In this document: in pieces, positions 3,540 through 20,584 of the stretch
Layout of the letters: each line of letters opens with the position of its first letter
How positions within the stretch are numbered: the first letter of the stretch is position 1
Assembly: GCA_040882355.1 (NCBI GenBank)
Contig: JBBEBM010000004.1
Coordinates: 112,482 to 176,481 of the forward strand
DNA length: 64,000 nt
DNA from: Dehalococcoidia bacterium
GTDB taxonomy: Bacteria; Chloroflexota; Dehalococcoidia; DSTF01; RBG-16-68-14
Direction: 5' to 3'
Notes under the pieces: model-generated
The model's input: the letters and a program-made list of their open reading frames with translations, nothing else
What the model was told of the DNA's origin: nothing
The model's database searches: none
Translations under genes and position numbers: made by a program

Positions 3540-4064
3540 CTAGCTCTGAAGTTGAGCGTGCTCCATCAGCCAAGCGACGTGCTCCGCGTAGTGCTCGTAG
3601 GTGTTGCCGGCGATCCACTTCACGATCGGCGCGCCGCTGTCCTTGCCAGGCTCGTTCGGCTGGTAATGAGAGTACGTCTTGAACAAGTCCGCGTCGGTGA
3701 GCGCGGCGAGCAGATCCTGCTGCGTCTGGCGGAACTCGGCGAGCACGTCCGCCAGCGATAGGTCCTTGCCGTGCTCGTGGACGGCGGCGTTGATCCCGTC
3801 CGTTCCGGCGGTCAGGTACGTCCGCTCATCCACGCCCATGGCCTCGTAGCGCGGCCGGCGTCGCAGCAGGGCGGCGATTCCCCGCTCCCATGCCGCGAGG
3901 TGAGCGAGGTGGTCCTTCACCGACCAGCCCTCGTATGGGCCTGGCGCGACGAGCTGCGCATCGGTCAAGCGGGAGATGGTCTCGTCCAACGCCGCCCGCG
4001 CCGCTTCGATGCGCTCGATCAGCGCCGTCTTGTCTTGCGGCAGGCGCTGCGTGAGGTCGGTCAT
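3540..4064 (-). CDS. DinB/ClbS-like four-helix-bundle protein (DUF1706/DinB_2 family)
   Basis: 174 aa. WSVKDHLAHLAAWE ... YEHYAEH resembles the ClbS/DfsB and DinB_2 metal-binding histidine pattern. Confidence 0.65.
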   Translation of the reverse strand: MTDLTQRLPQDKTALIERIEAARAALDETISRLTDAQLVAPGPYEGWSVKDHLAHLAAWERGIAALLRRRPRYEAMGVDERTYLTAGTDGINAAVHEHGKDLSLADVLAEFRQTQQDLLAALTDADLFKTYSHYQPNEPGKDSGAPIVKWIAGNTYEHYAEHVAWLMEHAQLQS

Positions 4065-4456
4065 CGCCCGCCCTCTCCGCTGCTCTTGCGCGCGTAATCG
4101 TCGAGCGCGCCATGGAGCGCATCCGCGGCCAGCACGGAGGCGTGGAGCTTGCTTGGCGGCAGGCCGCCCAGCGCCTCGACGAGCGCCTCGCGCGTGAGCG
4201 CGGCTGCCTCCTCCAGCGACATGCCGCGCGCCAGCTCGCTGAGCAGGCTGCTGGCCGCGATCGACGCTGCGCAGCCGTCCGACTGCCAGCGCGCCTCCTC
4301 GATGCGCGCGCCTTCGATGCGCAGCATGAGCAGCAGCGTGTCGCCGCAGACAGGGTTCGTCATGTAGCCGATCGCGTTCGCATCGTCGAGCGCTCCGCTG
4401 TTGCGCGGCCGCTCGAAGTGATCCATGACGATCTCGGAGTAGCCCTCGCTCGTCAC
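4061..4456 (-). CDS. sufU: SufU/IscU-like Fe-S cluster assembly scaffold (NifU N-terminal domain), probable GTG start
   Basis: In-frame YSEIVMDHFERPRNSGALDDANAIGYMTNPVCGDTLLLMLRIEG ... SDGCAASIAASSLL matches the SufU/IscU conserved Cys-containing segments. The track ORF has an Arg-rich N-terminal extension that is probably spurious. The GTG at 4454-4456 overlaps the stop of the upstream peroxiredoxin gene (GTGA). Confidence 0.75.
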   Translation of the reverse strand: MTSEGYSEIVMDHFERPRNSGALDDANAIGYMTNPVCGDTLLLMLRIEGARIEEARWQSDGCAASIAASSLLSELARGMSLEEAAALTREALVEALGGLPPSKLHASVLAADALHGALDDYARKSSGEGGR

Positions 4457-4926
4457 AGCTCGATCCCCAACGCGCGGAACGCCTCCTCCAACTGGGAGAG
4501 GCTGTTCGGGCTGAACGGGTTCGCGGCGTAAGAGATCGTGCCGTCTTGCTCGACGACGAAGAGCGCCCGGCGCGAGCGATGCGGGTCGTCCTCGGCGAGG
4601 GCGTCGTAGGCGCGGGCGGCGCTCAGGTCCGCGTCCGATGCGAGCGCGAAGGGGACGCCGCCCAGGCGCTCGGCGAACGCGCGGTGCGATTCGACGCTGT
4701 CCGCGCTCACGGCGATGACGCCGGCGCCCACCTCGCACAGCGCGTCGTGCGCGTCCTTCAGCGCTGCGATCTCGGTCGAGCACGTGGGCGTGGCGTCCTC
4801 GAAGTAGAAGGCCAGCAGCACGCGGCCCTGGAGCAGCCGGTCGGGCAGGCGCACGTCGCCGTCCGTGCCCGGCAGGACGAAGTCGGGCGCCTTGTCGCCG
4901 GCGCTAGGCATCGTCGCCCGCCGCAA
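4453..4926 (-). CDS. Peroxiredoxin (Bcp/AhpC-TSA family thiol peroxidase)
   Basis: 157 aa. FYFEDATPTCSTE has the peroxidatic Cys in a T-P-x-C context and the protein has a thioredoxin-fold layout. Confidence 0.85.
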   Translation of the reverse strand: MRRATMPSAGDKAPDFVLPGTDGDVRLPDRLLQGRVLLAFYFEDATPTCSTEIAALKDAHDALCEVGAGVIAVSADSVESHRAFAERLGGVPFALASDADLSAARAYDALAEDDPHRSRRALFVVEQDGTISYAANPFSPNSLSQLEEAFRALGIEL

Positions 4927-6070
4927 ACCCCAACAGATCGCCCGGCTCGACGCCCTTGCGCTGGGCGAGGACGCGGATGCGCCCCAGCCCGGCCGGGTCG
5001 ATCAGCTCCTGCACGGCGCGCCTGCGCGCGTAGTACTCCTCGAGCGCGTCCGGCGATTCGCGCGCGACGCTGTCCACCCCCGCGCCGATGCCCAGGCTCG
5101 CGAGGAAACGCGCCTGCGTCGTGAGGCCGGCCGTGGCCAGGCCATGCCCTTCGCCGGCGCGCATCAGCGTCGTGAAGTCGACGTGGGCCGTGATGTCCTG
5201 CTTGCCGATGCGCGCGTAGGGGTCGGTGCTGGGGTTGTGGCGATAGAAGCAGAGCAGCGTGCCGTCGCGGCGCCAGGGCGCGTAGAGTTCGCGCGCCGGG
5301 TAGCCGTAATCGAACGTGAGGACGAAGCCGCGACCGAGCGATCGCGCGGCCTGCGCCATCCAATCGACGGCCTGGAGGTTGACCTCGGCCACGCAGCCTT
5401 CGCCGGGCGACAGGCCGAGATCGGCGAAGTACCGCGCAATGCCGTTCGTCGAGAGCGGGCGGAGCTGCGCCTCGAACCGGCCGCCGTCGTGCGAGACATA
5501 TACCTCAAGCAGGTTGCCGTTCGTCTGGGTGACGCGGTGCACCGGGAAGGCGTCGATCAGCTCGTTGCTCAGCAGGCAGCCCTCGATGCTGTCCGGAAGG
5601 TGGTCTAGCCACTCGACGTTAGGCGGCGGCGAAAGCTGCGCCAGCGTCTCCTCCTGTCGCCGGCTGAGCGCCGCGCTGATCTCGACGATGCGATAGTGCA
5701 GCGCCCCCGCGAAGTCCGGCGCCCGCGTCTGCGCCCAACGGAGGATGTCGCGGGCGAGCAGGCCGGTGCCCGCCCCCTGCTCGACGACGTCGAAGGGCGC
5801 CGGGCGGCCCATCAGCTCCCAGCACTGCGCCTGCTGCTTCGCCACCAGCGCTCCGAAGATCGGGTGCACCTCGGGGCTGGTGAGGTAGTCGCCCTGGCGG
5901 CCCATCGGCTCGCGCGTCACATAGTAGCCGAGCTGTGGGTGGTAGAGCGCCGTCTCCATGAAGTCGTGAAACGTGATCGCGCCTTCCGCGTGGATGCGCC
6001 TGCGCAGCAGCTCGACCAGCGCAGCGCTCTCGGTCGCGGCTTCGAAGTCGTCCGTGGCCCCGTAGCTCAT
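4904..6070 (-). CDS. SAM-dependent methyltransferase, MidA/NDUFAF7 (DUF185) family
   Basis: YYVTREPMGRQGDYLTSPEVHPIFGALVA ... VVEQGAGTGLLARDIL is typical of the MidA family. The likely true start is the internal MSYGATDDF; upstream of it is a Pro-rich extension. Confidence 0.8.
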   Translation of the reverse strand: MSYGATDDFEAATESAALVELLRRRIHAEGAITFHDFMETALYHPQLGYYVTREPMGRQGDYLTSPEVHPIFGALVAKQQAQCWELMGRPAPFDVVEQGAGTGLLARDILRWAQTRAPDFAGALHYRIVEISAALSRRQEETLAQLSPPPNVEWLDHLPDSIEGCLLSNELIDAFPVHRVTQTNGNLLEVYVSHDGGRFEAQLRPLSTNGIARYFADLGLSPGEGCVAEVNLQAVDWMAQAARSLGRGFVLTFDYGYPARELYAPWRRDGTLLCFYRHNPSTDPYARIGKQDITAHVDFTTLMRAGEGHGLATAGLTTQARFLASLGIGAGVDSVARESPDALEEYYARRRAVQELIDPAGLGRIRVLAQRKGVEPGDLLGFAAGDDA

Positions 6071-6173
6071 GGCTGCTCCATGGTAGCGAACGGGCGGAGG
6101 AGGCGGCGGAGAGTTCATGCAATGGCAACGCATCGGTAACAGGGACGTAAAGCTGACCCGTTAGGCTGGAAGC

Positions 6174-6554
6174 ATGAGCAATCGAATCATCCTCGGCAAC
6201 CTGGAGATCGAACGGGGCCGCCTCGAAGCCTGGGCCGACGGCCGGCGGGTCGACCTCACGCTCGTCGAGTTCAGGCTCCTCCGCGAGATCGCGGCGGACC
6301 CGAACCGAGTCGTTTCGCGTCAGCGACTGCTGGAGATCGTGCGGTCCGGCTCGCCGGCCGCGAAGGACCGCGCGCTGACCACGCAGATGTCGCGGCTGCG
6401 GAAGAAGATCGCCGCAAGCCGGCCGTGGCGCATCGAGGCGGTGACGAAGCGCGGCTACGCGCTGAGGAACACGCTGCGAGAGCCTCGCCTGCCGATGTTC
6501 GTGCTCGCGCACGCCCCGGTGACGCACACCCGGGCGTTAGTGGAGGGCCGATAG
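6174..6554 (+). CDS. Stand-alone winged-helix transcriptional regulator (OmpR/PhoB-type trans_reg_C DNA-binding domain)
   Basis: 126 aa. LTLVEFRLLREIAADPNRVVSRQRLLEIV ... LTTQMSRLRKKI matches the OmpR C-terminal effector domain. There is no receiver domain. Confidence 0.6.
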   Translation: MSNRIILGNLEIERGRLEAWADGRRVDLTLVEFRLLREIAADPNRVVSRQRLLEIVRSGSPAAKDRALTTQMSRLRKKIAASRPWRIEAVTKRGYALRNTLREPRLPMFVLAHAPVTHTRALVEGR

Positions 6555-6754
6555 TGATGCTGCGTTGTTCCCGTGTCTCCCGGCGAACCTGGCGCCTGAT
6601 GGGGCCGGGCGCCCGCGACCAGCCGTAGCAGGCGGGTTCTCGGGTGTAGACGACAACGGAGAGAGCAGGCAGCGCACTTCCCCGCCACCGGTGCCCGCCG
6701 CCTGCTCTCTTCGCGTGTTGGGCGCCGGTCGTGCCTCCGGCGCGGGGCAGGTGC

Positions 6755-7951
6755 TCAGTGGGCGATGGCCGGGATGGGTTCGCGGGCTGGCGGGAATATT
6801 GGAACCTTCATGAACGTGAAGATGAGGCCGGCGTACCATTCCTGATCTGGCTTGCTCGGCAGATTGGTGAAGGCAGTGCATCTGCCGTTGACTTCGTCGA
6901 CGAAGTCGAAGCGCAACTGCGGGCAGTCGCGGCAGGCCCACGCCTGCGGCGGTTCTGCGCTCCGGAACGCGGTCGCCATTCGTGCTGCCACCGCGTCGAC
7001 CTTCTGGAGTTCGATTGGGGTCCATGCACAATCGAGCCGCTCGAAGACACCAGCACGCAGGCCGCCATTCTGGCCCGCATTCTTCAGGAACAGGCCCCCA
7101 ACCCACTGGGCCCACACGCCCGACACGTTCCGGACGAGTTGCCAGCGGCGGCCGTCTTCGTCCAGCCACTCAAGCTTGACCAGTCCCGTATTTCGAAAGG
7201 TCCAGCCGCCGAGCAGCGCGGCGCCCTCCGGCACGTCGTACAGTGACGCCCATTCGGTCCGCGCATTGTCCGGGTTCAGCTCCCGCCAGTTGAGCGGCAA
7301 GTAGCACGAGAGCGTGAGGAGCACATCGTTGCTGCCTTGCTGGGACGCCCACCATCGAAGGGCCGCGTTGATCACCATCGTCATCGGCCACAGGAAGAGC
7401 AGGGCGGCGAACAGCGTATAGTAGAGGACCTGCGCGACCATGAGGTGGCCTGACATGGCGATCAGCAACGTGACACCTACCAACGCCGCGAACAAACCCA
7501 TGATGACGAGGAGCATCACGCCCATCTGCGAAAAGAAGAGGCGGCTTAGTCTCACGCCCGCGCTCTTGTAGAGGTCGAAGAGGACGTAGAGCCCCAGGGG
7601 GAGCAGCGGGATTCCAACGTCAGTCTGCCTGAAGTGAGGGTCGCCAATCTTCGCGAAGAGAGCAGCGAGGCCGACGAGGGCGCACATGATCCCGCCGAGG
7701 TTCAGCGCGATCGCGCGTACTTCGCGGCCCGCCGCGCTGCTCGGCCGGGCGATTCTCAGGCCGATGAACAGGAGCACGATGGGCACCGGTGCAATGAGGC
7801 TGTTGGTGATCGTGAGCGCGATCGTAAGCGGCACCCCGCCCTCCGGCCAGCCTCCGATGCCGAGATGAGGCAGCACCCGCCAGCCGAGCTTCGCGACCAC
7901 GGCTAAGGCCACCGCTCCGAAGATGAGGGCTTGGGCTCTCGTTAGCCGCAT
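6755..7951 (-). CDS. Polytopic membrane protein of unknown function with a conserved Cys-containing C-terminal soluble domain (paralog 1)
   Basis: 398 aa. About 6 hydrophobic helices in the first ~200 aa, then a ~190-aa hydrophilic domain with DCAW, CRDC and CTAF motifs. Paralogous to 8010-9191. Confidence 0.7.
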   Translation of the reverse strand: MRLTRAQALIFGAVALAVVAKLGWRVLPHLGIGGWPEGGVPLTIALTITNSLIAPVPIVLLFIGLRIARPSSAAGREVRAIALNLGGIMCALVGLAALFAKIGDPHFRQTDVGIPLLPLGLYVLFDLYKSAGVRLSRLFFSQMGVMLLVIMGLFAALVGVTLLIAMSGHLMVAQVLYYTLFAALLFLWPMTMVINAALRWWASQQGSNDVLLTLSCYLPLNWRELNPDNARTEWASLYDVPEGAALLGGWTFRNTGLVKLEWLDEDGRRWQLVRNVSGVWAQWVGGLFLKNAGQNGGLRAGVFERLDCAWTPIELQKVDAVAARMATAFRSAEPPQAWACRDCPQLRFDFVDEVNGRCTAFTNLPSKPDQEWYAGLIFTFMKVPIFPPAREPIPAIAH

Positions 7952-8009
7952 CGTCGTACCTCCATCGCTATGCTCGGCAGGCGACGCCTTTTCGCAGCGA
8001 CGCTGACCG

Positions 8010-9191
8010 CTAGCTCACCGCGACTGCGGGCTCGGATGCCGGTGGCGCAGCGGGCGCTCTCGCCCAGATGACGAAAAGTCCCGCGTACCAGGCCGGCTCA
8101 GGCTCGTCCGGAAGATTGGTGTAGGCCACGCAGTACGTCCCGTCGATGCCGGTGAAGTCGAAGCGGAGCATCGCGCAGTCCGAGCAGACCCAGCCTGTGG
8201 AGGGTCGGTCGCGGAGCGCCGCGTGCCGATCAGCGTCGTCGCTCTCAGGCGAGTACGGCACCCAGGCACAATCGATGTTCTCGAACACACGAAAACGAAG
8301 TCCGCGGTCGCCGTTGCGCGACGCGCGGACGAAGGGCCCGGCGATCCACTGAGGCCACGGAGTGGTCGGCGCATGAGGGTACAGCAGCCAGCGCCTTCCC
8401 TCTGTGTCTGTGCACTCCAGCTTCATGAGAGGGGCGTCTTTGTGCGACCAGGCTCCGGTGAGCGCGCCGCCCGCCGGCACGTGATCCGCCTTTCGCCACT
8501 CTGCTTCGGCGTCGTCGCCGCTGAGCTGCTTCCAGCGGTTGAGCGGCAAGTAGAAGCCCGGCGCGAGCCGCACCTCGCGTTCTCCACGACGCCGAGCACT
8601 CCAGCGCAGCGCGGCGTTGAGAGGAATACATGCCAGGAGCGCTATCAGGAAGGTCGGGAACACGAGAGATAGGAGGCGCGAGAGCATGGTGCTGCCCATG
8701 GCCTGGAACGCAACGACGAGGGCGATCAGCACCGCACCGAGCAGGATCATGATCGCGGCGGCTACGGCGTTGTGGAGCAGGAAGCCGGTGCTCAGTTGGC
8801 CATGCTCATTCCGGTACGCTTCAACGAATGTCCAGATGCCCAGGGGCAAGAAGAGGACCGCGGTGCTGGCGGCCGCCAACTCTGGCTCGAACATCAAGCG
8901 GCAACCTATGGTGATTCCCACCAAGGACCAGAGGAGGGCAAGGGCTACCAGGACGTTTTGCCGGGCCTGCTTCCAGACATCGCTCGCCGGCTTCGATGCG
9001 AACAACGCGAGCGTGACCAGGGTAGGCGGGCCGAGGAGGAAGATCGAGAAGGAGATGGCATCGCCCGCCTGTACTGCCGGTTCGTCTGAGGGGCGTGCTG
9101 CGAATGCGGATACGATGCCCCACACGAACGTGAGCGAGACCGGGGCAAACAACGCCGCAGCGAACAGCTTCTGAGCCTTCGTCAGCCGCAA
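8010..9191 (-). CDS. Polytopic membrane protein of unknown function with a conserved Cys-containing C-terminal soluble domain (paralog 2)
   Basis: 393 aa. Same architecture as 6755-7951; both start MRLT(R/K)AQ.L. Shared motifs: YLPLN, GRRW, VFE.(L/I)DCAW, C.DC..LRFDF, C.A(F/Y)TNLP, WYAGL. Confidence 0.7.
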   Translation of the reverse strand: MRLTKAQKLFAAALFAPVSLTFVWGIVSAFAARPSDEPAVQAGDAISFSIFLLGPPTLVTLALFASKPASDVWKQARQNVLVALALLWSLVGITIGCRLMFEPELAAASTAVLFLPLGIWTFVEAYRNEHGQLSTGFLLHNAVAAAIMILLGAVLIALVVAFQAMGSTMLSRLLSLVFPTFLIALLACIPLNAALRWSARRRGEREVRLAPGFYLPLNRWKQLSGDDAEAEWRKADHVPAGGALTGAWSHKDAPLMKLECTDTEGRRWLLYPHAPTTPWPQWIAGPFVRASRNGDRGLRFRVFENIDCAWVPYSPESDDADRHAALRDRPSTGWVCSDCAMLRFDFTGIDGTYCVAYTNLPDEPEPAWYAGLFVIWARAPAAPPASEPAVAVS

Positions 9192-9284
9192 CTTCGTACC
9201 TCCATGGGTATTCTCGGCAAGGCGCGCTCACTCTTGGGGCGCCCTTGACCCTCACCCGCGCGCCCCGTCACAATCGATACCGCC

Positions 9285-9668
9285 ATGCCCGCGCGCAGCG
9301 ATGCGCCGCCTGCCGCGAAGGACGAGCGACTGGAGCTCGAGCCGCGTATCAAGCTCTGGGTGGAGAAGGACGGCCGGCTCGTGCTCAGCGACTACCGGGT
9401 GCAGCTCCTTCGCCACATCGCGGAGAGCGGCTCGCTCGCCGAGGCGGCGCAGCGGATGGGCCTCTCGTATCGACGCGCCTGGGGCAAGGTCCGCGAGATC
9501 GAACGCAACATTGGCGTGGCGCTGGTGCGAAGCGAGGCCGGCGGGGCCGGCGGCGGAGGCAGCAGGCTGACGCGCGAGGGAGAACGGCTGGTGGCCCTCT
9601 ACCAGCGCTTTCAGCGCAAGATGGAGACGGACCTGGGAAGGGAGTTCAAGGAGGTGTTCGATGGGTAG
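9285..9668 (+). CDS. ModE N-terminal-domain-like (LysR-type winged helix) transcriptional regulator, without Mop/TOBE domains
   Basis: 127 aa. IAESGSLAEAAQRMGLSYRRAWGKVREIERNIGVALV matches the ModE N-terminal HTH domain consensus. It sits directly upstream of a tungstate/molybdate ABC transporter. Confidence 0.7.
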   Translation: MPARSDAPPAAKDERLELEPRIKLWVEKDGRLVLSDYRVQLLRHIAESGSLAEAAQRMGLSYRRAWGKVREIERNIGVALVRSEAGGAGGGGSRLTREGERLVALYQRFQRKMETDLGREFKEVFDG

Positions 9669-10554
9669 CTTTTCGTTTGCCATCGATATGCTAGCAAAGG
9701 CATATCGATGGCCGGGTAGGGTCGCGGTCGGCCTGATCGCGGTCGTCGCACTGCTGCTGGCGGCGGGCTGCGGAGGCGGCGGCAGCGAGCTGATCCTGGC
9801 GACGACGACGAGCACGCAGGACAGCGGTCTGCTCGACGTGCTGGTGCCCTCGTTCGAGGACGGCAACGACTACAACGTGAAGGTGATCGCCGTCGGCAGC
9901 GGCCAGGCGATCGAGATGGGTGAGCGCGGCGACGCGGACGTGCTGCTGGTGCACGCGCCGTCGGCCGAAGAGGAGTTCGTCGATGCCGGGCACGGCACGA
10001 ACCGCCAGCTCGTCATGCACAACGACTTCATTATCGTCGGGCCGGCGGACGACCCGGCCGGTGTCGCTGACGCCGCCGACGCGACCGCTGCGATGCAGGC
10101 GATCGCCGCCGCCGCGGCGCCGTTCGTCAGCCGCGGCGACGACTCCGGCACGCACACGCGCGAGCTTTCCGTGTGGGAGGCCGCGGGCATCGACCCGGTT
10201 GGCGAATCTTGGTACGACGAGTCGGGCCAGGGGATGGGCGCGACGCTCCAGATCGCCGGCCAGACGGCCGCCTACACCATCTCCGACCGCGCGACCTACC
10301 TCTCGCAGCAGGACAATCTCGACCTGGAGCTGCTCTTCGAGGACGATCCCAAGCTGCTCAACATCTATCATGTGATGCAGGTGAACCCGGACGAGTTCGA
10401 CGACCTGAACTCCGAAGGCGCGGAGGCGTTCGTCGCGTTCATGATCGGCGACGACGCTCAACAGATGATCGGCGAGTTCGGCGTCGAAGAGTTCGGCGAG
10501 CCGCTCTTCGTGCCGGACGCGGGAAAATCGGAAGATGATCTGACGGGTCGGTAG
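9661..10554 (+). CDS. tupA: Tungstate/molybdate ABC transporter substrate-binding lipoprotein (TupA-like)
   Basis: 297 aa. Signal peptide with lipobox LLLAAGC, and the TupA-type ILATTTSTQDSGLL anion-binding motif. Confidence 0.7.
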   Translation: MGSFSFAIDMLAKAYRWPGRVAVGLIAVVALLLAAGCGGGGSELILATTTSTQDSGLLDVLVPSFEDGNDYNVKVIAVGSGQAIEMGERGDADVLLVHAPSAEEEFVDAGHGTNRQLVMHNDFIIVGPADDPAGVADAADATAAMQAIAAAAAPFVSRGDDSGTHTRELSVWEAAGIDPVGESWYDESGQGMGATLQIAGQTAAYTISDRATYLSQQDNLDLELLFEDDPKLLNIYHVMQVNPDEFDDLNSEGAEAFVAFMIGDDAQQMIGEFGVEEFGEPLFVPDAGKSEDDLTGR

Positions 10555-10657
10555 CTCGTTCGACCGTAGCTGCAGACCTTTAGGTCTGCCGGTGCCAACT
10601 GGCAGCGTGAAAGGCTAGTCGCTACGAGGCGCCATTGCGAGTCTAGAGGAGGGCGAC

Positions 10658-11356
10658 GTGGACCTGATCTGGGACGGCCTGCGCGAGGCGTTTCGCATCC
10701 TGGGCACGGGTGACCGCGACGTCTGGCGAACGGCGCTGCGCTCGCTGCTCATCTCCGGCTCCGCGACGGTGATCGCCCTCGTCATCGGCATCGTCGCCGG
10801 GGCAGCGCTCGCCTTCGGGCGGTTCCCTGGGCGGAACTTGACCGTGACGCTGGTGAACACGGGAATGGGCCTGCCGCCCGTCGTCGTCGGGCTGATGGTG
10901 GCGATCCTGTTCTGGCGCAGCGGTCCGTTCGGCGCGCTCCACCTGATCTACACGCCGGCGGCGATGGTGATCGCGCAGACGGTGATCGCCGCACCGCTGG
11001 TGACGGGCTTTACCGTCGCCGCGCTGGGGGCGCTGCCACCCCGGTTGCGGCCGCAGCTTTACGCGCTGGGGGCGTCGCGTCTGCAGATGCTCTGGCTGGT
11101 GCTGCTGGAGGCGCGGCTGCCGCTGCTCGCCGCAATCATGGCCGGCTTCGGCGCGGCCGTCTCCGAGGTGGGGGCGTCGCTGATGGTGGGCGGCAACCTC
11201 GCGGGCGAGACGCGCGTGCTCACGACCTCCGTCGTGCTGGAAGTGCAGCGCGGCGACTTCGACACGGCGATCGCGCTCTCGATCATCCTGCTCGTGATGA
11301 TCTTCGCGGTGAACCTCGTCCTGACGAGCGTCCAGCAGCGACAGCGCCCCCAATGA
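10658..11356 (+). CDS. tupB: ABC transporter permease (TupB/ModB-like)
   Basis: 232 aa, multi-TM, with an EAA-like loop (GASRLQMLWLVLLEARLP) of type I ABC importer permeases. Adjacent to the substrate-binding and ATPase genes. Confidence 0.8.
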   Translation: MDLIWDGLREAFRILGTGDRDVWRTALRSLLISGSATVIALVIGIVAGAALAFGRFPGRNLTVTLVNTGMGLPPVVVGLMVAILFWRSGPFGALHLIYTPAAMVIAQTVIAAPLVTGFTVAALGALPPRLRPQLYALGASRLQMLWLVLLEARLPLLAAIMAGFGAAVSEVGASLMVGGNLAGETRVLTTSVVLEVQRGDFDTAIALSIILLVMIFAVNLVLTSVQQRQRPQ

Positions 11357-12444
11357 CCGCGAAGCTCTCGCTGCGCGACGTCGTCGTGCGACGAGGGGGC
11401 GCGGAGCTGCTGCGCGTGCCCGAGCTGGACGTCGTGGAGGGCGAGGTGCTCGCCCTGCTCGGCCCGAACGGCGCGGGAAAGAGCACGCTGCTCCAGGTGC
11501 TGGCGCTGCTCGAACGCCCGAGCGAGGGCGCCGTCCGTTTCGAGGGCGAGCCTGTCGCCGGACGAGACCTGGCCTTGCGCCGGCGGATGGCGGTCGTCTT
11601 TCAGGAGTCGTTGCTGCTCGACAAGTCGGTCGAGTCGAACGTCGCGCTGGGCCTGGCGCTGCGCGGCGTCGGCCGGCGCGAGCGGATCGAGCGCGCGCGG
11701 CGCTGGCTCGCCCGCTTCGGCATCGAAGCGCTCGCGCGGCGTTCGGCCCGCAGCATCTCGGGCGGCGAGGCGCAGCGGGCGTCGCTCGCCCGCGCGTTCG
11801 TGCTGGAGCCGGAGGTGCTGCTGCTGGACGAGCCATTCAGCGCGCTCGACCAACCGACGCGCGAGGCGCTCGTCGACGAGCTGGCGACCGTGCTGCGCGA
11901 GACCGGCATCACCAGCGTCTTCGTCACGCACGACCGCGACGAGGCGGCGCGGCTCGCGCATCGCGTGGCGGTGCTGGCGGGCGGACGGTTGCGCCAGGTC
12001 GGGCCCGCGGCGGAGGTCTTCGCCGCGCCGGCCGACGAGACCGTCGCCGCCTACGTAGGTGTCGAGACGGTCGCGCCGGGCCGTGTCATCGAATCGAGCG
12101 AGGGGCTCGTGGCGCTCCAGGTGGGCGACGCGCGGGTCGAGGCGGCGTCGAACAGCTTCACGGCGAGCGAGGCGCTCGTCTGCCTGCGACCGGAGGACGT
12201 GGTGCTGTCGCCGGGGCACGGCATCGTCGCGGACAGCGCACGGAACCACCTGCGCGGCGTCGTCCGCCGCGTCACACCCGCGGGCGGCGAGGTGCGCGTC
12301 GAGGTGGACTGCGGCTTCCCGCTGATCGCGAGCATCACGCGCCGGTCGCTGGAGGAGTTGGGCCTGGACGCCGGCTCGGCCGTCACGGCCTCGTTCAAGG
12401 CGACGGCGGTGCACCTGATCCCGCGGGGCCCTTCGTCACCCTGA
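11353..12444 (+). CDS. tupC: ABC transporter ATP-binding protein with C-terminal TOBE-like domain (TupC/ModC-like)
   Basis: 363 aa. Walker A GPNGAGKST, signature SGGEAQR, Walker B LLLDEP. The C-terminal ~130 aa resemble a TOBE/Mop domain. Its start overlaps the permease stop. Confidence 0.8.
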   Translation: MTAKLSLRDVVVRRGGAELLRVPELDVVEGEVLALLGPNGAGKSTLLQVLALLERPSEGAVRFEGEPVAGRDLALRRRMAVVFQESLLLDKSVESNVALGLALRGVGRRERIERARRWLARFGIEALARRSARSISGGEAQRASLARAFVLEPEVLLLDEPFSALDQPTREALVDELATVLRETGITSVFVTHDRDEAARLAHRVAVLAGGRLRQVGPAAEVFAAPADETVAAYVGVETVAPGRVIESSEGLVALQVGDARVEAASNSFTASEALVCLRPEDVVLSPGHGIVADSARNHLRGVVRRVTPAGGEVRVEVDCGFPLIASITRRSLEELGLDAGSAVTASFKATAVHLIPRGPSSP

Positions 12445-12560: not shown

Positions 12561-13076
12561 CTAGCCCTGTAACCCGAGGATGTTCACGAGCACGCGGCGC
12601 TCGCGCGGGCGGTCGAGCTCAATCAGGAAGATGCGCTGCCACTGGCCCAGGGCGAGCCGTCCGTCCAGGATCGGGATCGTCTCGCTCGTGCTGAGGAAGA
12701 GGTGCTGGCAGTGGGCGTGGCCATTCGCGCACTCGTCTTCGTCCATGTTCACGGTGCGGCGCGTGAAATCGTTGTGGTCGTACTCGCCGTTCTGAGGCGC
12801 GATCTCGTGCAGGCGGCGCGCCATGTCGTCGAGAAGCAGCGGCTCGTTCTCGTTCACGCGGACGGCGGCGGTGGTGTGGTTGCTGAAGACGGTCACCTGG
12901 CCGAAGATGACCCCCGAGTCGCTCACGACGCGTTCGACGTCGTCGGTGATGTCGATGAACTCCGGCGCCGTGGTCGTCGGGACGTAGAGGGCTTCGCAAA
13001 GGACGGCGAACTGTTGTCCAAAGGAGGAAGCGACGCTCTCGCGGCGGGTGGCGACTTCAGTGAGGGTCTGTTCCAT
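12561..13076 (-). CDS. YjbQ/UPF0047 family protein (secondary thiamine-phosphate synthase-like)
   Basis: ITDDVERVV ... GQVTVFSNHTTAAVRVNENEP ... CQHLFLSTSETIPILDGRLALGQWQRIFLIELDRPRERRV matches the YjbQ family. The track ORF begins 44 codons upstream; the internal ATG at 13076 gives the canonical length. Confidence 0.8.
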   Translation of the reverse strand: MEQTLTEVATRRESVASSFGQQFAVLCEALYVPTTTAPEFIDITDDVERVVSDSGVIFGQVTVFSNHTTAAVRVNENEPLLLDDMARRLHEIAPQNGEYDHNDFTRRTVNMDEDECANGHAHCQHLFLSTSETIPILDGRLALGQWQRIFLIELDRPRERRVLVNILGLQG

Positions 13077-13204
13077 GCGCTGTCTCACTCCTCCCAGCGT
13101 CGATTGGGGCGCCCCTCCGAGGCGCGGCTGTAGTGTATCACGTCGCTCTCCTATAACCGAGCTTACCCGTGCCTTTCGTTGACCGCAAGCGGTGGTTTGC
13201 TCAG

Positions 13205-14542
13205 TCAACGACGAGGTTCGGGCGAGGGATCGCTCAGCTTCGTGCCGGGTCCCACCCGCTCAAGCAGCGCCGTATATCCGCTCGCTGCGAGGATGGAGAG
13301 AACAGGCAGCAGGGCGAGGTGATAGCGGGCATCGCCAAAGAAGAGGACGCCAAACATGAATGACCAGAGGCCGACTGTTCCGAACAGTAACGTGTAGCCA
13401 GAGCGCGAAGACGAGGAAGGACGCAGGGCAACTGCCAGCAGGGCACCAGCCAGCACAAACCAATAGTACGCCTCAGCGATGACGCGCGCCTGGCCGAACG
13501 AGGGCGGACCGGACCACGACGGCTCGATCAGCAACCGTCCATAGGCAGTCCATACGGGGTCGTACGCGTACAGCCGCCGGAGCTTTGCGGGCGTTCGACC
13601 TAGGTCGGCGAGAGGGTTCGACATGAAGTCGTCCACTGCTCTCCGCATGGCGGCGCGGTCGATCTCCAGAGAGCGTTCCGGCTCTGGCAGGTCTCGGTAG
13701 CCGGACGCAAGGTCGTAGTAGGGGTTGAGGTCGCCGGTGCCTCGGCCGACGAAGAAAGATACCCCGGTTCTGGTCGTGAGAAACACAGGAGCGTCAAACG
13801 CCAGCGTGTTGCGGGCCGCCCACGGGACCACGAATACCGCCATACCGCAGACGACGAAGGCAACCAGCCGGCACGTTACTCTCCAGGACAGGCCGCGAGC
13901 AAGCAGTAGCGCGAAGATTAAGGTGGGAAGGAGGAGCGCCTCGGTCCGGATCAGCGTGGCGGCGCCCACCATCAGCCCTAGGACAAACGCTCTCCAGCCA
14001 AGGACGTTGCCGCTCGCGACGAAAAGGATGAAGGCAAGAACGAAGGCGAACATCACCTCCGTGAGCAGGACGGCTGACCACAAGATGTGAACCGGGAAGA
14101 GCGCCAGGATCAGGCCGGCCCCGAGCCCCACCCTGGTATCGAAAAGGCGCGCGCCCAGCAGGAAGGTCACCACGCAGGTGGCGGAGGCCACAACGGCGCT
14201 AAAGATTTGCGCTGATAGCACGTTCGGGCCGGAGAGCAAGTAGAAGACGCTCAGGATAGCCGGCCAGCCCAGCGGAGCGCGCGCGGTCGGAGCACCCGCC
14301 GGGTCCACGTAGCCATCGCCCTGAGCCAGGGAGCGCGCCGTGAACATGTAGTAGCTCATGTCGTCGCGCGGCGCCTCCGTGGCTTCCTGCGGGTGCTCAT
14401 AAATGTCGTTCCAGACTCCGGCCACGTCAGGACTGACCACCCAGGCGAGTCGAGGCGCGAGAGCGAGAAGGAAGACCAGGGTCGCCAGCAGAACGGGCGC
14501 GCGCGTTGCTGCTACCCGGGCAGAGGACCAGAGACGGGCCAT
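13205..14542 (-). CDS. GT39/ArnT-like membrane glycosyltransferase (PMT_2 family)
   Basis: 445 aa with more than 10 predicted TM helices. An N-terminal periplasmic-loop region with an acidic motif near the first TM is typical of ArnT/PMT-type polyprenyl-phosphate-sugar transferases. Confidence 0.7.
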   Translation of the reverse strand: MARLWSSARVAATRAPVLLATLVFLLALAPRLAWVVSPDVAGVWNDIYEHPQEATEAPRDDMSYYMFTARSLAQGDGYVDPAGAPTARAPLGWPAILSVFYLLSGPNVLSAQIFSAVVASATCVVTFLLGARLFDTRVGLGAGLILALFPVHILWSAVLLTEVMFAFVLAFILFVASGNVLGWRAFVLGLMVGAATLIRTEALLLPTLIFALLLARGLSWRVTCRLVAFVVCGMAVFVVPWAARNTLAFDAPVFLTTRTGVSFFVGRGTGDLNPYYDLASGYRDLPEPERSLEIDRAAMRRAVDDFMSNPLADLGRTPAKLRRLYAYDPVWTAYGRLLIEPSWSGPPSFGQARVIAEAYYWFVLAGALLAVALRPSSSSRSGYTLLFGTVGLWSFMFGVLFFGDARYHLALLPVLSILAASGYTALLERVGPGTKLSDPSPEPRR

Positions 14543-19810: not shown

Positions 19811-20584
19811 TCAGTCCTCCTCCGGCACGTAGGTACGGTAGTAGCCGACCTGCTCGAATCCCATCCGGCGGTAGATCGGCTCGCCCATCTCGGATGCCTG
19901 CAGGTTCGCGATCGCGCAGCCGGCGGCCGCGCCCTCGTTGAGCGCGTGGCGCGTCATCGCCTCACCGAAGCCGCGCCGGCGCGCCTCCTCAACCGTCGCG
20001 ACGTAGTAAACGCCGGCGACGCCTTCGGTAAAGACGAGCTGCGACGTGGCGACAGGCCGCCCGTCCCGGTAGCCGACGTAGCCGCGCCATTCGGGCGCCT
20101 CGATCAAACGCGGCGTGAAGACACCGGACAGTGTCGTCGTCTTCCACTCGAATCCCTCCGCGACGACCGCCGTGTGGTCGCGCAGCGTCGCTTCGTCGTC
20201 TACGAGCCGGACCGTGAGCTCCGAGACACTGGCATCCGCGCGCAGCGGGCTCAGGGCGAGGCATGGAATGCCGCCGTGCCGCTGCAGGCCCCATTCCGCC
20301 AGATCGTCCTCCGAAGGCGCGGGCGCCCCTTCGAGAAAGCGGAGGCGGAACGGCAAACCGCGATCGCGGAAGTAGGCGGACACCTCGGACAGCGTCTCGA
20401 CCGGGCGCTCCGGGCGCTGTTGCAGGAAGACGTTGTTGAACGACCGCATGGGCACGCTCGACGCCGCGATCGTCAGGCCGTCGCGCTCCCAGCACTCGCC
20501 GCCGTCGCAGGCGGACGCCCAGACCTGGGTCGCGCACACCAGGTTCGCGTCCGCGCCCGCGACGAGCGCTTCCGCCGTCATCAT
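19811..20584 (-). CDS. GNAT family N-acetyltransferase
   Basis: The C-terminal VATVEEARRRGFGEAMTRHAL acetyl-CoA-binding motif (R/Q-x-x-G-x-G/A) and fold length fit GNAT. Confidence 0.7.
   Translation of the reverse strand: MMTAEALVAGADANLVCATQVWASACDGGECWERDGLTIAASSVPMRSFNNVFLQQRPERPVETLSEVSAYFRDRGLPFRLRFLEGAPAPSEDDLAEWGLQRHGGIPCLALSPLRADASVSELTVRLVDDEATLRDHTAVVAEGFEWKTTTLSGVFTPRLIEAPEWRGYVGYRDGRPVATSQLVFTEGVAGVYYVATVEEARRRGFGEAMTRHALNEGAAAGCAIANLQASEMGEPIYRRMGFEQVGYYRTYVPEED

Follow-up and report, generated by a model that had tools for sequence, protein, structure and literature searches.

A tandem gene pair beside a tungstate-uptake operon, from a membrane-anchored protein family of Dehalococcoidia with a duplicated, putatively metal-binding domain

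Two neighbouring genes, A and B, in a 64,000-nucleotide stretch of a Dehalococcoidia genome (contig JBBEBM010000004.1; hereafter the window) encode membrane proteins of an apparently undescribed family. With moderate confidence, this Dehalococcoidia family is read as a membrane anchor joined to a two-module domain with putative metal sites, present in the window as an accessory insertion beside the tup operon. The anchor (six transmembrane (TM) helices or a 2-TM hairpin) would hold the duplicated domain at the inner membrane face, and each intact ligand triad would coordinate a metal ion, by default Zn2+, its ligands being kept or lost as a unit. In A and B the second module alone would hold such a site, perhaps with C358 or C354 as fourth ligand, and the tethered domain would work as a binding or regulatory platform.

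A and B are real tandem paralogous genes, both on the reverse strand. A (6755..7951) encodes 398 aa from an ATG start and B (8010..9191) encodes 393 aa from a TTG start, and the two share one architecture of six TM helices followed by a tandem-repeat domain that is predicted to be cytoplasmic. Their paralogy, proposed in the initial annotation, was borne out by 34% identity over 384 aa (BLASTP, E=3e-61), rising to 45% in the C-terminal halves, and every block listed there (YLPLN, EW, GRRW, VFE.[LI]DCAW, W.C.DC..LRFDF, C.A[FY]TNLP and WYAGL) is identical in both. Codon-position GC content (GC3) is typical for coding DNA (A, 0.82; B, 0.80). A is an exact match to the MAG protein WEE64_00885, and B to NCBI MEX1252872.1, a hypothetical protein of a Dehalococcoidia MAG. 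The context of the ribosome-binding site (RBS) is alike in the two genes (ATGGAGGTACGA..(A/T)TG), with a GGAGG Shine-Dalgarno sequence 7 nt 5' of the ATG of A (7959..7963, reverse strand) and of the TTG of B (9199..9203, reverse strand). The direct repeat D2 (9172-9219 and 7932-7979, 81% identical) spans the RBS regions of B and A, and the Shine-Dalgarno sequence of A was copied along with the gene in the duplication.

Searched exhaustively with HMMER, 1.84 billion cluster representatives yielded 38 sequences at E<=1e-3. Two of them (P0030 and P0031), repetitive proteins whose matches consist of 5-6 short stretches, were treated as likely false positives, leaving ~36 relatives. All four named members, A and B included, come from Dehalococcoidia MAGs. 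Judged by these searches, the family is very rare, essentially restricted to Dehalococcoidia and undescribed. A weak candidate at 7650-8423 of locus L045 (13.9 bits, GC2 0.62) was rejected. The initial annotation had not recognised the soluble domain, and profile and structure searches (Pfam, NCBIfam, PHROG, PADLOC, PDB, Foldseek) likewise gave no significant match. A and B match no Pfam family at E<=0.01 and no NCBIfam family meaningfully at E<=1, and when 28 members were compared with the Pfam, NCBIfam and PHROG libraries no family was matched by more than one of them. PADLOC returned one weak match, limited to a TM region and not significant; a search of PDB sequences gave no significant match, and Foldseek found no match for the modelled structure in PDB or BFVD. 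The signalling domains expected of a two-component sensor kinase or chemoreceptor (HisKA/HATPase_c, HAMP and MCP) are absent from 28/28 members (Pfam). Word-index homology searches with A, the C-domain pair and a profile of 28 sequences recovered nothing beyond the query or a single member, probably through crowding of the candidates by TM-derived words. Scanning species-representative genomes for patterns from the family alignment gave no matches, and in JGI metagenomes such scans recovered only the already-known P0003 contig. A literature search turned up no publication on a family or neighbourhood of this kind.

The soluble domain, which spans ~180 aa after the six TM helices in both proteins, arose by internal duplication of a ββαββββ module. 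In A, the first module (R1) covers residues 206-296 (7064..7336, reverse strand) and the second (R2) residues 297-385 (6797..7063, reverse strand); hhalign matches one to the other at 99.2% (E=2.7e-19) and 99.5% (E=3.5e-22), with the 'h.W' of R1 aligned on the 'c.W' of R2. Alignments place the same two-module domain at residues ~201-373 of B (8073..8591, reverse strand). An AlphaFold2 model of A built on a 28-sequence alignment has a mean pLDDT of 86.5 (~90 across the soluble domain) and a pTM of 0.75, and it reproduces the ~6 TM helices and following soluble domain that had been described, the latter being β-rich. The model from A and B only reached a pLDDT of 41 and was unusable; the rise with more sequences points to a real fold.

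When intact, each module carries the triad [H/C]-x-W...W-x-C-x-x-C: one hairpin turn bears [His/Cys]-x-Trp, and the following turn, ~30 residues on, bears Trp-x-Cys-x-x-Cys. Two residues beyond the first ligand, Trp is almost invariant (25/28 members), and Glu is never seen there. In R1 of the family, 15/15 members with CxxC have the His, against 0/15 of those without (Fisher 1.3e-8, uncorrected for phylogeny); parsimony gives ~7 changes (~7 independent events), in each of which His and CxxC change jointly. The 21 members whose R2 CxxC is intact have Cys (17), His (3) or a gap (1) at position 308; the three that have fully lost this CxxC have Tyr, Ile or Gly. Both Cys of each CxxC are usually retained or lost as a pair, and triads are missing in some members, so that either site, or both, can be lost.

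A and B retain the second-module site only. In A, R2 is intact (C308-x-W310 ... W338-x-C340-x-x-C343), and its putative ligand codons lie within 6923..7030 on the reverse strand (C308, 7028-7030; C340, 6932-6934; C343, 6923-6925). In the model, C340 and C343 occupy a β-hairpin turn flanked by strands 336-340 and 346-351; C308 follows strand 298-305 and precedes strand 310-313. The putative ligands of B, assigned by alignment on the same strand, are C308 (8268-8270), C336 (8184-8186) and C339 (8175-8177), with an extra C354 (8130-8132). The R1 site is degenerate in A, with no His before W222 and F252/T255 where CxxC is expected, and also in B (N-R-W; H..A). The initial annotation had taken four conserved Cys to suggest a metal or redox site. 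All four are shared by A and B, but across 28 members C308 occurs in 20, C340 in 24, C343 in 22 and C358 (6878-6880, reverse strand) in only 3, which makes the fourth Cys lineage-private; a metal site stays plausible and is better supported than the pair of sequences could show, given that the other three belong to a co-varying triad with a His-containing twin in R1.

In the AlphaFold2 model, residues 1-204 of A (7340..7951, reverse strand) form six TM helices (5-26, 40-67, 73-103, 109-130, 137-166 and 170-204); the N-terminus is placed inside. Lys and Arg are concentrated in A at the N-terminus, in loops 2-3 and 4-5 and after TM6; across the family, 135 lie on the domain side and 35 on the opposite side (56 vs 2 in the 2-TM forms), and an Arg-rich stretch directly follows the last TM helix. 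By the positive-inside rule, the soluble domain is thus predicted to be cytoplasmic. The opposite topology, with an extracytoplasmic domain whose Cys form disulfides or a CxxC thiol-redox centre and bind no metal, is quite unlikely. Dehalococcoidia are monoderm, so an exposed domain would be feasible, the domain is rich in Trp (11/198 residues), like many extracellular binding domains, and joint retention or loss of a CxxC pair would be expected of a disulfide too. However, the domain sits on the Lys/Arg-rich side of the membrane, the third coupled residue is sometimes His and sometimes Cys at matching positions of the two repeats, a pattern typical of metal ligands and not of disulfides, and the number of conserved ligands per site (three) is odd. 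Because the ligands are coupled and the domain is placed in the cytoplasm, a Zn-type site is likely, and the intact triads most likely bind a metal ion, with Zn2+ as default. The fourth coordination position would be taken by a further residue or solvent. No further ligand residue is conserved at i±2-3 of position 308, and the 'LEC' Cys of A (position 262) was rejected as a fourth ligand, being uncorrelated with the R1 triad (9/14 vs 6/13); the Cys private to this lineage (A, C358; B, C354) may fill that role.

A role in transport, which had also been proposed, is not supported. Around half of the family has a 2-TM hairpin in place of the six TM helices, and only the last TM hairpin and the soluble domain are common to the long and short forms. 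Among 28 members, no transporter HMM was matched consistently and no conserved TM core shared by all was found. The 2-TM forms and the lack of a transporter family match speak against a membrane transporter (ABC, MFS or other), and because of these short forms the TM part is regarded as an anchor. It probably does no more than tether the domain to the inner membrane face, as a binding or regulatory platform.

The immediate flanks of the pair are as first described: a winged-helix gene without a receiver, and a ModE-like regulator heading a tungstate/molybdate transporter. The former (6174..6554, forward strand) is a stand-alone OmpR-type gene of 126 aa (PF00486, Trans_reg_C, E=1.3e-16), convergent with A. 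In the gap between them lies the 18-bp inverted repeat I5 (6657..6713; 89% complementary, 21-nt loop), a candidate bidirectional terminator for both genes that has no T-run and was hence missed by the terminator scan. B and the modE-like gene diverge from a 93-bp intergenic region (9192..9284), which was aligned with three other loci. The modE-like gene (9285..9668, forward strand) encodes an HTH-only regulator of 127 aa (PF00126; TIGR00637, 84 bits) without a Mop/TOBE sensing domain (Pfam, NCBIfam). It is 69-75% identical in syntenic loci, where it is the conserved divergent neighbour of the window subfamily, and its stop overlaps the start of tupA. The tup operon (9661..12444, forward strand), which is context and not part of the family, comprises tupA (9661-10554), tupB (10658-11356, permease) and tupC (11353-12444, ATPase with TOBE). 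The TupA-like binding protein has the TTTS motif (ATTTSTQDSG; motif as defined in PMC5517513), and scores 223 bits against NF041772 (TupA equivalog), below the cut-off of 400 bits.

The predicted promoter of the modE-like/tup operon, TTGACC-18-CACAAT (9245..9274, forward strand), ends ~10 nt before the ATG (near-leaderless); it is the sole sigma70-like site within 6000-9800, and both hexamers are conserved in four loci. These -35/-10 hexamers are the only conserved elements of the divergent region, so a ModE operator was rejected; for the family gene, the four aligned loci gave no definable conserved promoter. Bracketing by two regulators, as the initial annotation saw it, is not a conserved arrangement, as the OmpR-like gene occurs in this genome only and is missing at every other family locus.

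Across genomes, the family gene adjoins modE-like/tupABC divergently in five loci of one subfamily only, with Mtase28, a CoA-transferase, an aldehyde dehydrogenase or the OmpR-like gene on the other flank. Divergent adjacency in five independent loci despite differing other flanks, an intergenic region of only 93 bp and a regulator without a Mop/TOBE domain would suit a tungstate/molybdate-linked sensor or metal-handling protein, whose Cys site binds or senses W/Mo, which is co-regulated with tupABC via the divergent promoter, and which might supply the sensing that the regulator is missing. Such a role is nevertheless unlikely. The closest species-representative tup loci (TupB-anchored) have the operon and the same HTH-only regulator without the family gene in 80/80 cases; L021, L023 and L037 have nothing in the slot, Mtase28 directly abuts the regulator in three of the 80, and the slot is elsewhere filled by a CoA-transferase or MarR+MFS. 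Four other members occur in unrelated contexts (between HhH-GPD and argCJB, after priA, or beside an abhydrolase). Moreover, the family has no similarity to Mop, TOBE or ModA/TupA, with no Mop/TOBE domain in A, B or their relatives (TOBE is present in the neighbouring TupC), and triads are lost in some members; known oxyanion sites use hydrogen-bond donors, not thiolates. The suggested tie to tungstate or molybdate is therefore not supported, and because the operon recurs without the gene and members occur in other contexts, the family does not qualify by gene neighbourhood as a functional partner of tupABC. That the pair adjoins tungstate-uptake genes seems to reflect a chance insertion and not cooperation. 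The family gene may share the tup regulatory region, and is probably not needed for tungstate uptake.

In syntenic loci the family gene is 27-35% identical, whereas its neighbours are 65-82% identical. Two frameshift-split copies occur in other metagenomes, and the GC3 of A and B is slightly below that of their neighbours. The family gene is probably an accessory gene that evolves fast and was inserted at a variable slot beside the modE-like/tupABC promoter, and the tandem copy and the OmpR-like gene may be recent, lineage-specific additions. A mobile-element origin was rejected, as the only repeats or att-like scars are those of the tandem duplication, and phage and plasmid collections hold no copies of the family gene. 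The divergence, the split copies and the lowered GC3, together with patchy presence in a variable slot, copy-number change and an extremely narrow distribution, would also fit a conflict gene (phage defence, immunity, or a phage or toxin target) with its tethered domain under diversifying selection. That explanation is rather unlikely: PADLOC and PHROG gave no significant match, neither phage nor plasmid collections hold copies, the neighbours are housekeeping genes and not a defence island, and effector domains such as a nuclease or ATPase are absent; relaxed constraint could equally explain the fast divergence.

A bolder extension of the preferred reading, and a long shot, is that the duplicated ββαββββ module represents a novel fold for binding metal, whose three-ligand, open-coordination site is sensory or catalytic, not merely structural, tethered to the inner membrane face and, in the window subfamily, sharing a divergent control region with tungstate uptake. 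If true, it could, for example, be a membrane-proximal sensor of a thiophilic metal or redox state feeding an HTH-only ModE-like regulator without a ligand-binding domain.

Among known systems, the ModE/Mop/TOBE sensors share with the family only genomic proximity to modE-like/tupABC, in one subfamily; there is no sequence similarity, the family is not co-distributed with the operon, and other members lie in unrelated neighbourhoods. Another partial likeness is to cytidine/deoxycytidylate deaminases ([H/C]-A-E ... P-C-x-x-C), whose ligand types, order and ~30-residue spacing recur in the family. This resemblance, with only three coupled ligands identified per module ([H/C], C, C), would accord with a membrane-tethered catalytic zinc enzyme, deaminase-like or another hydrolytic type, with an open coordination position, which is very unlikely. 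The near-invariant Trp stands where the catalytic Glu would be, the ligands are surrounded by predicted all-β structure and lie at β-turns, not at helix N-termini of an α/β/α fold, and either or both sites can be lost. No deaminase or other enzyme appeared among the Foldseek or HMM matches, and a deaminase-like catalytic site was rejected on these grounds.

Zinc ribbons and knuckles (e.g., rubredoxin-like) resemble the family in the CxxC at a β-hairpin turn of the model and in ligands that co-vary as a unit. The only faint sequence similarities are to rubredoxin or Zn-ribbon models and fall on the CxxC. One member matches PF18073 with E=0.047, and the others are PDB rubredoxin 2 (E=4.5) and the YgiT finger (E=0.087); none is significant. 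A zinc ribbon has two knuckles (CxxC/CxxH) on two β-hairpins that supply four ligands, whereas each module here has one CxxC and a single His/Cys ~30 residues upstream, and at ~90 aa the ββαββββ module is far larger, with no significant sequence or Foldseek match. A functional analogy is offered by zinc-binding anti-sigma factors (ZAS, H-x3-C-x2-C) and by other Zn-binding regulators tethered to the membrane in the cytoplasm, which share the general plan of a cytoplasmic His/Cys-Cys-Cys site on a membrane anchor. No sigma-factor gene lies near A or B, and there is no Pfam match. The Zn domain of ZAS is helical and N-terminal to a single TM helix, whereas the family domain is β-rich, duplicated and C-terminal to two or six TM helices.

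The open reading frames at 6755-7951 (A) and 8010-9191 (B), both on the minus strand, encode proteins of 398 aa with an ATG start and 393 aa with a TTG start, respectively. Their positions and every sequence block listed in the initial annotation, from YLPLN to WYAGL, were confirmed in both proteins. By their codon-position GC pattern (GC1/2/3 of 0.64/0.46/0.82 for A and 0.64/0.52/0.80 for B, in a genome of 67% GC) these are real genes, with GC3 slightly below the 0.87-0.93 of their neighbours. Exact matches are the hypothetical proteins WEE64_00885 and WEE64_00890, from a 181.8-kb contig of a Dehalococcoidia MAG. BLASTP aligned A and B at 34% identity over 384 aa (E=3e-61), their C-terminal halves being 45% identical, and an identical ATGGAGGTACGA context lies ahead of both start codons. 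Direct repeats (D1-D7), spaced 1,240-1,252 nt apart, span the two genes and take in the RBS and ~28 nt upstream, which indicates that the whole expression unit was duplicated in tandem. The N-terminal peptide MRLT(K/R)AQ (codons at 7931-7951 in A and 9171-9191 in B, minus strand) is common to long-form members of the family and is unusually conserved for so divergent a group.

No Pfam or NCBIfam family was found for A or B, and no Pfam, NCBIfam or PHROGs model was matched by more than one of the 28 aligned members when each was scanned singly. Likewise, neither a single-protein query nor the family profile matched any PDB sequence, and weak similarities to rubredoxin and Zn-ribbon models at the CxxC were not significant. 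When 1.84 billion cluster representatives were searched exhaustively with HMMER, 38 proteins passed E<=1e-3 and 24 also passed E<=1e-10; two among the 38 were set aside as repetitive false positives. Each cluster contains one or two sequences, seen on 1-4 contigs, and all named members come from Dehalococcoidia MAGs. The family is considered, with high confidence, to be undescribed and restricted to Dehalococcoidia. Many relatives (among them P0003-P0009 and P0023) carry a conserved 'P.LASD' near the C-terminus and then a tail rich in Pro, Ser and Thr that finishes with PxPRTQP, an element that might serve in docking or processing; it is missing from A and B, where PPAREP/PPASEP is found instead.

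The soluble domain that follows the six transmembrane helices is assigned with high confidence to two homologous ββαββββ modules that arose by duplication (repeats R1 and R2; residue numbers are those of A). In R2, the CxxC is formed by C340 (24/28 members) and C343 (22/28), and position 308 is Cys in 20/28 members and His in three more; C358 is found in 3/28 members only. Of the four conserved cysteines initially proposed, three are common across the family. A second CxxC occurs at the equivalent turn of R1 in 14 of 28 members, neither A nor B among them, and in the hhalign alignment the R1 'h.W' falls precisely on the R2 'c.W'.

The putative ligand positions vary together. Across the 28-sequence alignment and six partial homologues, the His of the R1 H-x-W is present in all 15 members with an R1 CxxC, and in two CxxxC variants, and in none of the 15 without it (Fisher p 1.3e-8, uncorrected for phylogeny). 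Among members with an intact R2 CxxC, position 308 is Cys in 17, His in three and a gap in one; the three that have wholly lost the CxxC have Tyr, Ile or Gly there. Parsimony on a poorly resolved neighbour-joining tree, built with ligand columns masked, gave ~7 changes of R1 state, His and CxxC switching together each time; several independent co-losses of the pair are nevertheless evident. The 'LEC' Cys at position 262 was ruled out as a coupled ligand (9/14 vs 6/13).

The family-wide analysis bears out and sharpens the earlier suggestion of a possible metal site in an unrecognised domain. With moderate confidence, each module would hold a putative three-ligand metal site, probably for Zn, of which A and B keep the second only; the lineage-private C358 (C354 in B) is a candidate fourth ligand in these two proteins. 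The cysteines might instead belong to an extracytoplasmic disulfide or redox domain, but this is quite improbable: the coupled residues are odd in number, His and Cys replace one another at equivalent positions, and the domain's probable place is the cytoplasm, all of which favours metal ligands rather than disulfides. The location itself, a domain tethered to the membrane on its cytoplasmic side, is held with moderate confidence. A catalytic Zn enzyme would use the same ligands and is very unlikely. One member lacks the [H/C]-x-W ... W-x-C-x-x-C triad and several keep just one; a structural or regulatory role for the putative metal is therefore favoured over a universally catalytic one.

The pair is flanked by two small genes. 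An OmpR-type gene (6174-6554, plus strand; 126 aa) encodes a Trans_reg_C winged helix only, without a receiver domain, and is convergent with A across a 200-bp gap containing an 18-bp hairpin (I5). The modE-like gene (9285-9668, plus strand; 127 aa) encodes the ModE N-terminal HTH only (PF00126; TIGR00637, 84 bits), without a Mop/TOBE domain. This gene and B are divergently oriented, 93 bp apart. At its other end, its stop overlaps by 8 nt the start of tupA, which encodes a TupA-like binding protein with the TTTS motif, a tungstate signature (PMC5517513); genes for a permease and a TOBE-domain ATPase come next. The region's sole sigma70-like promoter (TTGACC-18-CACAAT; 9245-9274, plus strand) serves the modE-like gene and is the only conserved block in an alignment of four divergent regions. 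It leaves just ~10 nt before the ATG, so that the mRNA is near-leaderless. B and modE-like/tup could conceivably be regulated through their common 93-bp region.

Divergent pairing with modE-like/tupABC recurs at P0003, P0005, P0018 and the split gene P0038+P0020, all in close relatives of the window genome. In these, ModE-like, TupA/B/C, YjbQ and the Methyltransf_28 protein (Mtase28) are 65-82% identical to those of the window, whereas the family member found at that position reaches only 27-35%. Two copies and the OmpR-like gene are confined, among family loci, to the window genome, which leaves the proposed bracketing by regulators unsupported. Elsewhere, the gene beyond the family member encodes Mtase28, a CoA-transferase or an aldehyde dehydrogenase. 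P0013 and P0033 have an HhH-GPD glycosylase gene on one side and argC-argJ-argB on the other, P0036 is immediately downstream of priA, and P0024 adjoins an abhydrolase gene. None of 80 TupB-anchored loci from species-representative genomes contains a member. The interval between Mtase28 and the modE-like gene (6134-9284 in the window; also L018-L037) is an insertion slot whose content varies among related Dehalococcoidia. Some carry a member of this family there; in the closest TupB loci the slot is empty (L021, L023 and L037; 36-80 bp gaps) or holds a 429-aa CoA-transferase, or a MarR gene with an MFS transporter. Split copies, as overlapping or adjacent ORFs, occur at L015 (9596-10842) and on a JGI 3300056388 contig (P0038+P0020), and reflect either a frameshift or pseudogene, or else an assembly error.

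The empty or variable slot, the other contexts, the low identity and the split copies together identify the family gene as a patchy, fast-diverging accessory insertion. Adjacency to tup is a trait of one subfamily's insertion site and gives no evidence for a common function. A W/Mo-linked sensor, to which the divergent pairing would point, is thus rather unlikely, and tungstate handling found no support, given the 80 tup loci without the gene and the members in unrelated contexts; the suggested transport role is equally unsupported. That the gene serves in conflict or defence and evolves under diversifying selection, as the rapid divergence could suggest, is unlikely: a PADLOC scan that covered A and B, the OmpR-like protein and four family relatives gave one weak match, in a transmembrane region, and plasmid and phage collections contained no family copies.

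Other genes in the window were also noted. The YjbQ/UPF0047 ORF (12561-13208, minus strand) encodes 215 aa, against 171 aa in syntenic homologues, whose first residue corresponds to an internal Met (MEQTLTEV, ~13076). The start as annotated probably lies too far upstream. The NifU_N ORF (4061-4783, minus strand) has a ~100-aa Arg-rich 5' extension overlapping the Redoxin gene, and its true start is probably near '..SEIVMDHFERPRN'. A PMT_2-like membrane glycosyltransferase (13205-14542, minus strand) shares ~27% identity with its counterpart at L009 (1196-2584) in otherwise syntenic genomes, and is the neighbourhood's second fast-diverging or non-orthologous membrane protein. The window's single tRNA gene is tRNA-Val (TAC) at 19956-20037 (minus strand).

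By default, and with low confidence, the transmembrane part of A and B would serve as an anchor and the soluble domain would act as a binding or regulatory platform. A lineage-restricted orphan is in itself not very surprising; the novelty lies in the domain family.
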